NCBI GenBank assembly: GCA_016936595.1
Contig: JAFGXO010000011.1
Span: 1-57,019 of the forward strand
Direction of reading: 5' to 3'
Length of the DNA: 57,019 nucleotides
Origin: Bacteroidales bacterium
GTDB lineage: Bacteria > Bacteroidota > Bacteroidia > Bacteroidales > JAFGUD01
This document shows positions 1 through 3,420 of the stretch, piece by piece. The stretch's first letter is position 1, and each line of letters begins with the position of its first letter. A program made the translations under genes and the position numbers. A model generated the notes under the pieces. That model ran no database searches. It saw only the letters and a program-made list of their open reading frames with translations, and was not told the DNA's origin.

Positions 1-1
1 A

Positions 2-610
2 ACTGGAATTGACGAAATTACAAAATCTGTGGGTCAAAATAAAGTTAATTTTCAAATCTCCTCATCTTATCCAATTGAAACCACAAATGATCTTGTTTAC
101 TTTCTTGATATAGATTCTAGTCGAACATACCGCACAACTCTTAACATAACAGATTCAGTTGTCACAAAATTCTACACATGGGGATACGCACAACAACTTC
201 AAAATGAAGGTATCCAAGTTTACTGGAACCAAGAAAGCGGATTTTCATTTGATGGCGCATCTAATGCAAATGGCACAGAGGCAAATAATGATCGAGTATT
301 TGCTTTTTCAAACAAATATGGCTCAGGACAAAGCCCTCTACCAGCAAACGGAGAATGGAAAAGTGGAGATACTATTTCCAATAATTTCATACTTGCATAT
401 AACCTCCCACAAGGAGTCACATCAGTTGATGGTAGTTTAGCAGAATACCCAAGTGGAATTCATCCAAATATGCAGCCTAGTACAAAACAGGCCATTGCAC
501 AAGCACTCATCAATAATGTCCGCACGCAATTAAATGAACCAAGTCTCTTTATGTTAGATGGCACGCCGATCACTTGGGATGAAATTGAATCTCTTGCAAA
601 TGGCAAATAA
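2..610 (+). CDS. Hypothetical protein, 5'-truncated by the window edge (Ser/Asn/Gly-rich, possibly extracellular)
   Basis: Frame is open from position 2 (TGIDEITKSVGQNK...) to TAA at 608-610, so the GTG at 29 is probably not the true start; no family motif recognised. Confidence 0.6.
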   Translation, partial: TGIDEITKSVGQNKVNFQISSSYPIETTNDLVYFLDIDSSRTYRTTLNITDSVVTKFYTWGYAQQLQNEGIQVYWNQESGFSFDGASNANGTEANNDRVFAFSNKYGSGQSPLPANGEWKSGDTISNNFILAYNLPQGVTSVDGSLAEYPSGIHPNMQPSTKQAIAQALINNVRTQLNEPSLFMLDGTPITWDEIESLANGK

Positions 611-636
611 TATAACATAAAAATTTAAATTTTCCG

Positions 637-644
637 TATCTTTG
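637..644 (+). promoter_or_regulatory. Bacteroidota -7 promoter box for the Rpn gene
   Basis: TATCTTTG matches TAnnTTTG, 33 bp upstream of ATG 678. Confidence 0.55.
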
Positions 645-677
645 TAAAATAAGTTGAACACGTAAAATCACAAAAAC

Positions 678-1571
678 ATGACAAAAATAGCAAACCCGAT
701 ATACGATGTAGTTTTTAAATACTTAATGTCAGATAATAAGATTGCAAAACTCATGCTTTCCACTATTATCGGTAAAGAAGTTAATAATTTGCAATTCAGA
801 GATACGGAAAAACGAAACGATATTGACAAATCAATAAAGTATCATCGTTTAGATTTTTCGGCAGAAATTTTGGACGAAACAGGCAAAAAGGAAATCGTAA
901 TTATTGAACTTCAAAAAATACGGCTTCCTGCCGATATTGTTCGTTTTCGCAGATACTTGGGCGAGCAATACATGAACAAAGAAAACACCTACACGGGCGA
1001 AAACGAAAAAGGCGACCCCGAAGTTAAAGCAATGCCAATATTAAGCATTTATTTTCTTGGTTATAAGTTGTATAAAACCGATGCACCTGTCGTAAAAATA
1101 AACCGTAAAACAATAGACATTGCCACAAACGAACCAATAACCGAAAAAACAGAATTTACCGAAAGTTTAACGCATGACAGTTTTATCATTCAAATACCTT
1201 ATCTGAAAGAAAAACGCCGCAACGATGTTGAAAAACTGCTTGCCATTTTCGACCAAAGTTATCAGGATAAAGAAGATTATCATGCTCTAAACCTGAACGA
1301 AGACGATTTTCCCGAAAAATACCGAGAAATAATTCGCCGATTGGTAAAAGCAAACTCCGAACCTGACATCCGCCGAAAAATGGACATGGAAGACGACCTC
1401 GTAGAAGAAATCCGTAACAAAGATTTAGCAATAGCAAAGCGAGATTTGGCGATTGAAGAACAAAAGAAAAATTTACTGGAAACGGCAAAATTATTGAAAC
1501 AGTTGAAAGTGGATATAAACACGATAATTGAAAAGACTGGACTTTCTCGTGATGAAATAGAACGGATTTAA
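678..1571 (+). CDS. Rpn family recombination-promoting nuclease / PD-(D/E)XK putative transposase
   Basis: N-terminal NPIYDVVFKYLM, RLD...IIELQK catalytic motif, RFRRYLG, C-terminal coiled coil and IIEKTGLSRDEIERI tail typical of Rpn/PDDEXK_2 proteins. Confidence 0.85.
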   Translation: MTKIANPIYDVVFKYLMSDNKIAKLMLSTIIGKEVNNLQFRDTEKRNDIDKSIKYHRLDFSAEILDETGKKEIVIIELQKIRLPADIVRFRRYLGEQYMNKENTYTGENEKGDPEVKAMPILSIYFLGYKLYKTDAPVVKINRKTIDIATNEPITEKTEFTESLTHDSFIIQIPYLKEKRRNDVEKLLAIFDQSYQDKEDYHALNLNEDDFPEKYREIIRRLVKANSEPDIRRKMDMEDDLVEEIRNKDLAIAKRDLAIEEQKKNLLETAKLLKQLKVDINTIIEKTGLSRDEIERI

Positions 1572-1594
1572 TAAAAACAAATAAAAAGACAAGA

Positions 1595-1728
1595 GTTTAA
1601 CATTGGCTTTGCAGTAATTTTGGGCATTGTGCGTAATTCAAACAAAGTAGCTCGTATAAACATAAGTGCAAACTTTGAAGCATTGTGCCTCGTATCTCCA
1701 AAACTACTCAAACCTATTTTCGTTATCA
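1595..1728 (+). mobile_element. attC-like (gene cassette recombination site-like) imperfect inverted repeat, 134 bp
   Basis: Starts with RYYYAAC (GTTTAAC 1595-1601) 23 bp after the Rpn stop and ends at GTT (1722). Left arm GGCTTTGCAGTAATTTTGG pairs with right arm CCAAAACTACTCAAACC, leaving two unpaired C (1607, 1612). Confidence 0.6.
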
Positions 1729-2181
1729 CGAGGCTTTAAGTAAATGTGATAGTATTTTATCACTTAAAAAAACAATGGATACTCATTCTGAAAAAAATGT
1801 TGGTAATTCTGATTTTGTGATGCTTAATTACATTGATGAGCTTGTAGAAATTTTTCCAAAACCAAAAATTTTGTTGGTTGAACGAAAACCTCTTGAAGTT
1901 GTTGAAAGTTTACTTAATTTTCAATTAACTGATGACTATGAAGTTACGGAAAAATGGATTGATTTTTTATCTGAAAAATAAAATATATAAAAACAAACTT
2001 TGAAGTTAAAACAATTAAACATACAGATGTTGAGGACTTAGAAACAATGAAAGAAGTCTGGAATTATCTAATCCCTGACGAAAAATTTAATGAAAAAAAA
2101 TTTCAATTTTTAGATGATTTATACGTTAATGTTATGTTGGGAAAACTCATTTTAGAACACATAAACAAAGTTACAAAGTAA
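1722..2181 (+). pseudogene. Sulfotransferase-like (P-loop) gene remnant, 5'-truncated and frameshifted
   Basis: YHEAL...VGNSD...FPKPKILLVERKPLEVVESL resembles small sulfotransferase-like proteins. Adding one A to the A5 run at 1974-1978 joins it to an open frame 1981-2181 (KYIKTNFEV...MKEVWNYLIPDEKFNE...). The N-terminal PAPS-binding loop is missing. Confidence 0.6.
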
Positions 2182-2347
2182 ACCAAACTAACAATTTTTT
2201 TATAAATTAAACTACGAGGAAGATTATGGTTTTTTAATTGTTTTTTTTTCTTTTCATAAATAAATTTTCAAATAGTTTGTAATGTAATGCTAATAACAAT
2301 AAAGTTGTATTTATTATTTGAATATAACTTTGTTAGAAAGAAATAAT

Positions 2348-2383
2348 AAAAAAACTGCTATAAATTACGATAGCAGTTTTTTT
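2348..2383. terminator. Bidirectional rho-independent terminator downstream of trxB
   Basis: A7-CTGCTAT-loop-ATAGCAG-T7. Confidence 0.75.
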
Positions 2384-2400
2384 GATTTATTGAGAAAACT

Positions 2401-3420
2401 TTATTCTTTTTCGTTAAATTCAGTTTCAGAAATATATCTTTCGGCATCTAAAGCAGCCATACAACCCGAACCGGCAGCTGTAACGGCTTGTCGGTATGAT
2501 GAATCTTGTACATCACCGCAAGCAAATACTCCGGGAACGTTAGTTTTACTTGTTTTTCCTTCGGTTACAATGTATCCAACTTCGTCGGTATTAACAAATT
2601 CTTTAAAAATGTCAGAATTTGGTTTATGGCCTATTGCTAAGAAAAAACCGTCGATAGGCAAATCATAAATTTCTTCGTTATCTTGACCTTGATGTTTTAC
2701 AAGTTTAACCGCATTAACATTTTTATCGCCCAAAACTTCAAGAGTGTTGTGTTCAAATAAGACTTCGATTTTAGGATTGTTAAGCACACGTTTTTGCATA
2801 ATTTTAGAAGCACGCATTTCAGGTTTACGAACAATTAGATATACTTTAGCGGCAAGAGTAGATAAGTAAAGAGCTTCTTCGGCAGCAGTATCACCACCAC
2901 CAACAACGGCAACAATTTTTTCGCGATAGAAAAAACCGTCGCAAGTAGCACAAGCCGAAACACCTCCGCCACGTAATCTCATTTCACTTTCCAGTCCAAG
3001 ATATTTTGCACTTGCACCTGTTGCAATAATAATTGCATCGGCAGTAACAACTATATCCTCGTCAATAACAGCAGTATAAGGTTTTTTAGATAAATCAACC
3101 GAAGTAACTTCACCCCAGCGAATATCTGTTCCAAAACGTTCCGCTTGTTTTTGGAGGTCCTCCATTAAAACAGGGCCGGTAATTCCTTGAGGGTAGCCAG
3201 GGAAGTTTTCAACTTCGGTAGTATCCATAAGCTGACCACCAGCTTGCATTCCTTGATAGATTACTGGTTTTAAACCAGCTCTTGCAGCATATATTCCGGC
3301 AGTGTAACCGGCTGGTCCCGAGCCAATTATTAGTACTTGAATGTGTTCAGACGGATCTTTTTGTTTTTTTTCTGATTTTTGTTCGTTATTGTTCAAATTT
3401 AGTGAGCCGAAGAGTCCCAT
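2401..3420 (-). CDS. trxB: Thioredoxin-disulfide reductase
   Basis: GSGPAG FAD motif, GGQL, CATCDGFF redox motif, GGGDTAAEEA NADPH motif, GVFACGDVQD. Confidence 0.97.
   Translation of the reverse strand: MGLFGSLNLNNNEQKSEKKQKDPSEHIQVLIIGSGPAGYTAGIYAARAGLKPVIYQGMQAGGQLMDTTEVENFPGYPQGITGPVLMEDLQKQAERFGTDIRWGEVTSVDLSKKPYTAVIDEDIVVTADAIIIATGASAKYLGLESEMRLRGGGVSACATCDGFFYREKIVAVVGGGDTAAEEALYLSTLAAKVYLIVRKPEMRASKIMQKRVLNNPKIEVLFEHNTLEVLGDKNVNAVKLVKHQGQDNEEIYDLPIDGFFLAIGHKPNSDIFKEFVNTDEVGYIVTEGKTSKTNVPGVFACGDVQDSSYRQAVTAAGSGCMAALDAERYISETEFNEKE

Follow-up and report, generated by a model that had tools for sequence, protein, structure and literature searches.

A repeated, covarying hairpin behind an Rpn-like gene is probably the attC-like recombination site of a Bacteroidales cassette system resembling integrons

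The hairpin behind the Rpn-like gene and its siblings

We analyzed a stretch of DNA of 57,019 nucleotides (nt), hereafter the window, which corresponds to contig C163 in the draft genome (3.34 Mb, 241 contigs, 85% complete) of a Bacteroidales bacterium. Close to its left end lie a truncated open reading frame, a gene for an Rpn-like protein of the PD-(D/E)XK type and, behind the stop codon of that gene, a 134-nt hairpin at 1595-1728, followed by a sulfotransferase-like remnant and the first conserved flank gene (Table 1). An initial annotation, made from the letters alone, had placed the hairpin at exactly this position, had likened it to the attC sites of integrons, and had read the gene as a solitary cassette beginning at GTTGAAC; the motifs GTTGAAC and GTTTAAC, both arms and the closing GTT (1722-1724) are all present as it described. 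Our results show that the hairpin belongs to a large family of related sites, and suggest that it is probably a recombination site at which cassettes of an integron-like system are exchanged.

Sibling sites were detected by BLAST of positions 1572-1740 against the genome, then by a profile search with nhmmer, and then with a narrow covariance model (R1) built from 12 family members. At least 15 of them were found on 13 contigs of the same genome, many at contig ends. BLAST, which the initial annotation had recommended as a check, returned copies on contigs C223 (83% identity), C104 (78%) and C52 (twice, 89-91%), together with the start of one copy at the end of contig C180, behind a paralog of the Rpn-like gene. 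The profile search and R1 added diverged members on C215 (two), C84 (two), C178, C226, C89, C240, C53 and C172, and C180 also holds a different-looking site. The word solitary thus does not suit the window site, which lies 1.6 kb from the contig start in a genome with at least 15 such sites. In the 57-kb window R1 has a single match, at 1595-1728. Our own strict scanner for motif plus stem recovered only 7 true sites and missed the window copy, and a looser regular expression gave 33 matches, mostly due to chance. The relatives considered include the sister species G001, the site-rich G002 and G017, and L060, a complete Bacteroidales chromosome. In surveys in which 22 candidates were scored per genome, R1 matches were present in 30 of the 151 genomes sampled from the order and in 7 of the 151 sampled from the phylum, this genome being included in both counts.

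The sites share a common layout: a 5′ box (R″) ending in TAAC or TATC, the unpaired ATT, a 5′ arm, a variable loop, a 3′ arm, ATTNNC, and a 3′ box (R′) consisting of G followed by TTA or ATA. The R box of the family is 4 bp, with TAAC or TATC pairing with GTTA or GATA, and the stem is about 17 bp long with one unpaired base and one fixed position at which A stands opposite C. In the 12-sequence alignment, 96.7% of 243 cells are paired and 14 of the 21 pairs are altered on both sides; none of 500 shuffles reaches this value, and slid partners pair in 35-46.5% of cells. Similarly, among 34 elements from this genome and its relatives, 94.4% of 677 cells are paired and double-sided changes occur in all 17 stem pairs (a level attained by 0 of 500 shuffles; slid controls 34-39%), a result that leans towards structure because the alignment was fitted to the model. 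The covariation counts, like the strand counts that follow, are taken over related elements and are not independent, because the elements are kin. This pattern shows that the stem has been maintained by compensatory change. The A of the 5′ arm is opposite the C of the 3′ arm in 31 of the 34 rows (two rows are gapped and one has A-T), and an unpaired base stands five positions before the fixed A, also in 31 rows. On the bottom strand the A/C position becomes a G·T wobble, and the bottom strand is the more stable one in 32 of 35 elements, with a mean gain of 2.3 kcal/mol. Across the family only TAWC/GWTA is conserved in the boxes, and half of the sites have TATC with G|AT, outside the GTTRRRY/RYYYAAC consensus. 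The sole R-box pair that fails is pair 6/143, the second base of R′, in 2 of the 12 rows, where the neighboring cassettes differ. With siblings and a covarying fold in hand, the proposal of an attC-like site downstream of the gene, in an integron-like Bacteroidota system, stands.

The window copy is not a strong member of the family. Its R″ GTTTAAC fits RYYYAAC and its R′ GTTATCA departs from GTTRRRY; the arms read GGCTTTGCAGTAATTTTGG (1605-1623) and CCAAAACTACTCAAACC (1698-1714). Over a 141-nt stretch the top strand folds at -14.0 kcal/mol (z = -1.03), and 36 of 200 shuffles are equal or better. Folding of the bottom strand, another check put forward in the initial annotation, gives -14.7 kcal/mol (z = -1.04, with 32 of 200 shuffles as good), which alone is at chance level; the family fold, on the other hand, covaries. 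Taken singly the hairpin is unconvincing, and taken as a repeated, covarying family it is convincing, far beyond chance. Except for the weak C226 match, the window copy has the weakest fold of the 35 elements compared, and it may therefore be decaying. Two extrahelical bases had been pointed out in its stem; one recurs, as an unpaired base is found there in 31 of the 34 elements, whereas C1607 is peculiar to the window copy. There is no T-run 3′ of the hairpin. Rfam gave no match at E up to 1 across positions 1-3000 of the window; to our knowledge Rfam holds no attC family. In the best-matching public sequencing run, unitigs break at 655-723 and at 1625-1693, the latter inside the element, and the summed unitig depth is 77 over 1601-1700 versus 12.6 in the gene, a difference that fits a repeat and is not a copy number.

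The order of sites in arrays indicates how they are used. In arrays, all of which lie outside the window, the 5′ box of a site complements the 3′ box of the preceding site rather than its own. We examined 15 consecutive pairs from 9 genomes; nine of them agree at 9-10 of 10 positions and the mean is 7.9, as compared with a mean of 5.6 of 10 for the match of a box to its own R′ (n = 14) and of 5.3 for unrelated control pairs (95th percentile 8, n = 520). Neighbor matches reach 10/10 on C84 (where the own box gives 4), C215 and G001:C276, and 9/10 on C52 and C180, and in the chain of four sites in L060 all three junctions match at 9/9. The complementarity between neighbors begins one base past the conserved G, and where neighbors differ (TATC versus GTTA) the second R′ base is unpaired with its own R″. 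The bases after the conserved G thus go with the next cassette, which places the strand exchange immediately behind this G, at the same point as in integrons.

Further observations concern the loop and one composite site. In the loops of other long-type sites (C84, C215, C172 and C240) the words TTGTGC and GTGCAAA occur two to four times; short-type sites lack them. Together with the direct repeats GCATTGTGC in the loop of the window copy, these related words could be candidate binding sites, either for an accessory protein or for the N-terminal part of a recombinase. On the minus strand of C52:895-1075 (locus L033), the 3′ half of a long-type site (895-976) is directly fused with a complete short-type site (973-1075), and the two meet within ...GAT|AAGTAGCTCG. 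Both flanks of this fusion were also found in a 151-letter contig of another study's run (X2). The composite could have arisen by recombination of a cassette at a secondary position within the loop of another site.

Table 1. Features at the left end of the window (positions in nt from its first letter).
Feature	Position	Strand	Remarks
Upstream open reading frame	2-610	+	202 aa seen, 5′ end cut by the contig start; no Pfam or NCBIfam family
TATCTTTG	637-644	+	Fits TAnnTTTG, which we take to be the consensus of the Bacteroidetes -7 promoter box; putative promoter of the Rpn-like gene itself
GTTGAAC	653-659	+	GTTRRRY match 18 nt before the ATG (678), just after TATCTTTG; unsupported as a boundary
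Rpn-like (PD-(D/E)XK-type) gene	678-1571	+	297 aa; putative cassette cargo; weak match to TIGR01784
R″ box GTTTAAC	1595-1601	+	3′ of the stop codon (1569-1571); family-invariant core TAAC at 1598-1601
5′ unpaired spacer ATT	1602-1604	+	Invariant across the 12-sequence alignment
5′ stem arm	1605-1624	+	C1612, unpaired base typical of the family; A1617, fixed A opposite C1704
Variable loop	1625-1697	+	Direct repeats GCATTGTGC at 1624-1632 and 1680-1688
3′ stem arm	1698-1715	+	C1704 opposite A1617: A/C on the top strand, G·T on the bottom strand
3′ unpaired spacer ATTTTC	1716-1721	+	Family pattern ATTNNC
R′ box GTTATCA	1722-1728	+	Inferred crossover between G1722 and T1723
Sulfotransferase-like remnant	1775-2181	+	Frames 1775-1981 and 2047-2181, N-terminal part missing; PF13469 (E = 0.0018) and PF17784 (E = 0.0028), below cut-offs
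Thioredoxin-reductase-like gene (trxB-like)	2401-3420	-	Named from motifs; first conserved flank gene

Cargo, left boundary and probable distal end of the array

The product of the gene before the hairpin is a distant relative of the Rpn family, which it matches end to end through TIGR01784 (E = 3.2×10−6). The match scores 27.1 bits against a cut-off of 52.1, and no Pfam family was found in the protein at E up to 0.1, so the original name, Rpn nuclease, is softened here to Rpn-like. Its Atlas neighbors are Bacteroidota clusters, one of which is Rpn/PDDEXK_2 at 0.95, and a D...ExxK-like stretch (LDFS...IIELQK) can be recognized by eye. The gene also has in-frame ATGs at 1380 and 1386, from which a C-terminal product of 61-63 residues (1380-1571) could be made, like the internal antitoxins of Rpn genes. 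The cargo of sibling cassettes is diverse and includes a PIN/DUF6364 pair, XRE and LytTR regulators, a ResIII helicase, a TonB-dependent receptor with DUF4249, a secreted trypsin-like protease and small uncharacterised proteins.

Where the cassette begins is a question that can be answered in either of two ways under the attC-like reading of the hairpin. According to the initial annotation, GTTGAAC is the left end of a one-gene cassette. Such a cassette might for example have been inserted at a secondary G|TT behind a resident promoter. GTTGAAC is indeed complementary to GTTTAAC at 6 of 7 positions, and at the same place in C180 GTTAAAC reaches 7 of 7, but such complementarity adds little because both boxes fit one consensus. 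The window contains 132 GTTRRRY motifs where 131.9 are expected from shuffles, about one per 860 nt per strand, and a match in the 67-nt gap before the gene is therefore unremarkable. R1 finds no attC-like site between the upstream open reading frame and the Rpn-like gene, and no attC end (arm plus ATTNNC) precedes the motif. The paralogs point to another boundary. C180 encodes an Rpn-like protein 44% identical to that of the window, and its GTTAAAC also stands 18 nt before the ATG; the 142-nt tract over which the two loci are 90% identical begins 34 nt before the motif, so that the homology runs through the motif. The C180 paralog follows a gene for a small membrane protein, which in turn is preceded by a real attC; the 3′ box of this attC, G|TTAAACTC, complements the box after the Rpn-like gene at 9/9. 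This better match lies one gene further upstream, and the C180 cassette thus comprises two genes. A third paralog, in the sister species, has the -7 box and neither a GTTRRRY motif nor an attC. A left end at GTTGAAC is in our judgment unlikely, and the window cassette most likely starts beyond the contig start and includes the open reading frame at 2-610, which is probably its first gene by analogy with C180.

This open reading frame has no paralog in the genome, and no contig was found that continues the window to the left. A search for left ends with GTTAAACTC, the complement of R″, gave many chance matches, of which only C180:1166 follows an attC; a 13-nt match at C137:4270 was rejected as it lies inside a ferritin-like gene. 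We also noticed that one unitig of a public run (X1) extends 320 letters past the window start, so public data do contain the missing 5′ part. Window positions 619-760 and C180:1612-1753 share 90% DNA identity in a tract that covers the promoter and 28 codons at the start of the gene, whereas the proteins share only 44%, a contrast that suggests a paralog mosaic from gene conversion, or else strong constraint on the 5′ end.

On the other side, the sulfotransferase-like remnant begins 47 nt past the site, and R1 finds no attC after it; it may be a last cassette that has decayed, or a flank gene that has been disrupted. Synteny with the sister species starts at the trxB-like gene, whose region has 79% nucleotide identity to G001:C82, and includes the trxB-like and rluD-like genes. 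Neither an attC nor an Rpn gene was found beside trxB in G001, so the flank is variable. Since no further site follows and the genes beyond are syntenic core genes, the window site appears to be the last of its array, next to core genes.

Recombinases at the heads of related arrays

Contig C163 has no tyrosine recombinase match, in agreement with the statement of the initial annotation that no integrase lies in the window. In three relatives (G127, G037 and L060), a recombinase gene adjoins the head of an array and is co-oriented with it. The G127 enzyme, a tyrosine recombinase of 387 aa, is encoded directly upstream of an array with three R1 matches, and the enzymes of G037 and L060, 38% and 49% identical to it, hold the same position relative to the array. 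At L047:7399 in G127, 71 nt past the recombinase stop codon, there is a 10/10 complement of the R″ of the first detected site, with no hairpin before it, as expected of an attI, the site beside an integrase gene; this is one case, and no attI-like point was found in this genome.

The best NCBIfam model for the array-head recombinases is NF040815, named "site-specific tyrosine recombinase/integron integrase", which they match at 198-212 bits (cut-off 220; G127, 198). The IntI model TIGR02249 gives 186-193 bits (cut-off 265; G127, 186 in two stretches). The G127 enzyme has 26 residues where Vibrio IntI4 (2a3v) has 68, and the insertion that characterizes IntI is therefore absent. The array-head recombinase aligns end to end with 4a8e (139 bits), its best match among solved structures, and with 5hxy (117 bits). 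Its N terminus is extended by about 110 residues, a region scored as DUF5710 in some family members. None of the proteins of this genome, G001, G002 or G017 exceeds the cut-off of TIGR02249. The assumption that these sites are used by integron integrases is thus not borne out, the enzyme at the array head being one without the insertion. On the three matters that the initial annotation had singled out as decisive, siblings are present, the fold covaries, and an IntI/XerA-like recombinase heads the arrays in relatives, although a canonical IntI was not found.

The best candidate of this genome, on C174, is 39% identical to the G127 enzyme, and XerC/D-like genes are present on C167 and C229. A recombinase fragment at the start of C194 was set aside as of another, mobile-element type. 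Five site-rich relatives searched with the G127 recombinase (E = 1e-30) gave one homolog, in G076, at a contig end. Two further loci deserve mention. At L044 (G017:C325, 3151-3524), a 60-aa C-terminal tyrosine recombinase fragment, 59% identical to the G127 enzyme, follows directly after a site (3151-3247) in the orientation of the array, and by its sequence it is apparently the remnant of an array head inside the array. The gene at L036 (G001:C348, 349-2082), which the end of its contig interrupts, encodes a tyrosine recombinase longer than 578 aa. This protein has a long N-terminal region and two SAM-like core-binding domains, and its N-terminal match to the IntI model (124 bits) is the strongest in the genus.

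A probable integron-like cassette system and its relation to known systems

Taken together, these results make it probable, in our view with good confidence, that 1595-1728 is an attC-like folded-DNA recombination site of a Bacteroidales integron-like gene-cassette system. The Rpn-like gene, probably with the preceding open reading frame, would be the cargo of the last recognizable cassette of an array that would run off the contig start and end against core genes, the trxB-like gene being the nearest. The array-head recombinase would excise cassettes as circles by recombination of attC with attC and insert them beside its own gene. It would act on the folded bottom strand, which the fixed G·T wobble and the unpaired base may mark. 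As the IntI test failed, the system is classed as one that works like an integron and not as a member of that class. We lean somewhat, and with less assurance, towards a broader proposal, namely that this is a widespread cassette platform of the Bacteroidota's own, with single-strand recombination of the integron type but without the IntI insertion, in which the strand would be read from the G·T wobble and the unpaired base, perhaps aided by the N-terminal extension; the window would then show the distal end of an array with an Rpn-like, possibly anti-phage, cassette.

Several observations speak against this interpretation. The window shows a single site, and the left end of its cassette is not seen. 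The cassette has its own putative promoter, and several cassettes are large, up to 4.5 kb with three or four genes, in both respects unlike textbook cassettes. Five of the 15 consecutive pairs match at 7/10 or less, which could be caused by undetected intervening sites. No recombination event or excision product was seen in the assembled contigs of public runs; six joints are listed there, with sides that are short (21-62 letters) or a middle that is unknown, and these were not counted as excision. The 241 contigs of the 85%-complete assembly did not yield the array head of this genome, and neither a site nor an array lies downstream of the C174 recombinase. The recombinase loci L061 and L062 have no R1 match, and their attC-like ends were recognized by eye only. 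In well-assembled relatives, most single R1 matches have no recombinase within the stretch that was fetched.

Other explanations were weighed against the same evidence. The system could be a classical integron whose canonical IntI gene is unassembled in an 85%-complete genome that is fragmented and has contigs broken at repeats; the window R″ fits RYYYAAC, and the crossover after the G would also be as expected. We consider this very unlikely, given that no protein passes TIGR02249 here or in G001, G002 and G017, though G017 and G002 are rich in sites, that the gene at the array head in G127, G037 and L060 encodes a recombinase without the insertion, and that half of the sites, with G|AT and TATC, fall outside the consensus. 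A passage of the IntegronFinder 2.0 preprint likewise lists nearly nothing for Bacteroidetes, only In0 elements and one complete integron (Salinibacter). If instead the hairpin were a repeated palindromic element that takes no part in cassette exchange, similar to a miniature inverted-repeat transposable element (MITE) or a repetitive extragenic palindromic (REP) element, or a terminator or hairpin of the 3′ untranslated region spread by other means, the ends of a copy would not be predicted, by transposition or by RNA function, to pair with the ends of its neighbors and not with its own. Such an origin is highly improbable in our estimate, even though the copies lie behind genes in the orientation of these genes, form long hairpins like those of terminators and REP elements, and have left no excision product in the public-run contigs: no target-site duplication is visible in the examined flanks, the top strand, which is the one transcribed, contains the fixed A-C mismatch and gives the less stable fold in 32 of 35 elements, and the hairpin has neither a T-run after it nor an Rfam match at E up to 1.

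We find it very unlikely that the sites are served by housekeeping Xer recombinases, as happens at the dif-like sites flanking modules of some plasmids. The sites are hairpins of 92-135 nt in direct orientation and not duplex sites of 28 bp, and a dedicated paralog stands at the array head in three genomes, with the attI-like point 71 nt behind one of them; the Xer-like character of this enzyme and the XerC/D-like genes on C167 and C229 are the points that would fit with such a role. We therefore retain the reading of the hairpin as an attC-like site of an integron-like system.

If this is correct, gene capture of the integron kind would have a wider range, as the narrow R1 already matches 30 of 151 genomes in the order, and many assembly breaks in metagenome-built Bacteroidales genomes would be explained. 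The system would also be a natural experiment on what is required for recombining folded DNA. The IntI insertion is regarded, in a passage of PMC8138268, as needed to recognize folded attC. A survey of tyrosine recombinases states that it is "not fully conserved" in an integron-like subgroup. Tools that demand the IntI signature would miss the whole system. The cassettes are also places in which to seek defense and toxin-antitoxin genes in the phylum: Rpn proteins are presented in a preprint (bioRxiv 10.1101/2023.05.02.539157) as toxin-antitoxin systems with anti-phage activity whose antitoxin is translated from inside the gene, and another preprint describes defense systems in chromosomal integron cassettes. 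One review counts Bacteroidota among the phyla with integrons. Our literature searches, which did not cover supplements, found no published description of this cassette system.

The system resembles integrons, above all sedentary chromosomal ones, in many respects. Its sites are hairpins with R boxes, an unpaired spacer, an unpaired base in the stem and a variable loop, and they keep their structure over their sequence. The bottom strand is favored, the crossover lies just after the G of the 3′ box, and each cassette includes the distal half of the site before it. The sites within a genome are alike, the recombinase lies beside the first cassette, and toxin-antitoxin pairs occur in the cargo. 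In integrons of the Treponema denticola type, the integrase is also co-oriented with the array. Unlike integron integrases, the array-head recombinase lacks the IntI-defining insertion (26 versus 68 residues), falls below the IntI-model cut-offs and has an N-terminal extension of about 110 residues; the sites differ in their core, TAWC/GWTA, and in having one unpaired base plus a fixed G·T instead of two extrahelical bases, and several cassettes are multi-gene with promoters. In the window and on most contigs, the attC-like sites have no nearby integrase and thus resemble the clusters of attC sites lacking an integrase (CALIN) defined by IntegronFinder. A CALIN, however, requires at least two close attC sites and the 57-kb window has one R1 match, although the contig start 1.6 kb upstream may cut a cluster.

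Similarly, the end-to-end alignment of the array-head enzyme with 4a8e (archaeal, XerC-like) and 5hxy (XerA) places it near the simple tyrosine recombinases of the XerA/Xer kind, from which it differs in its position at the array head, its N-terminal extension and the presence of separate XerC/D-like genes alongside. The cargo protein is like the Rpn (YhgA-like) nucleases in its weak end-to-end match to TIGR01784 and in its Rpn/PDDEXK_2 Atlas neighbor, and unlike that family (TIGR01784, PF04754 and PF12784) in scoring below the family cut-off and having no Pfam match; it is best called a putative nuclease. Finally, unlike MITE and REP repeats, the outer boxes match the neighbor (mean 7.9 of 10) over their own partner (5.6), and the examined flanks have no duplications.

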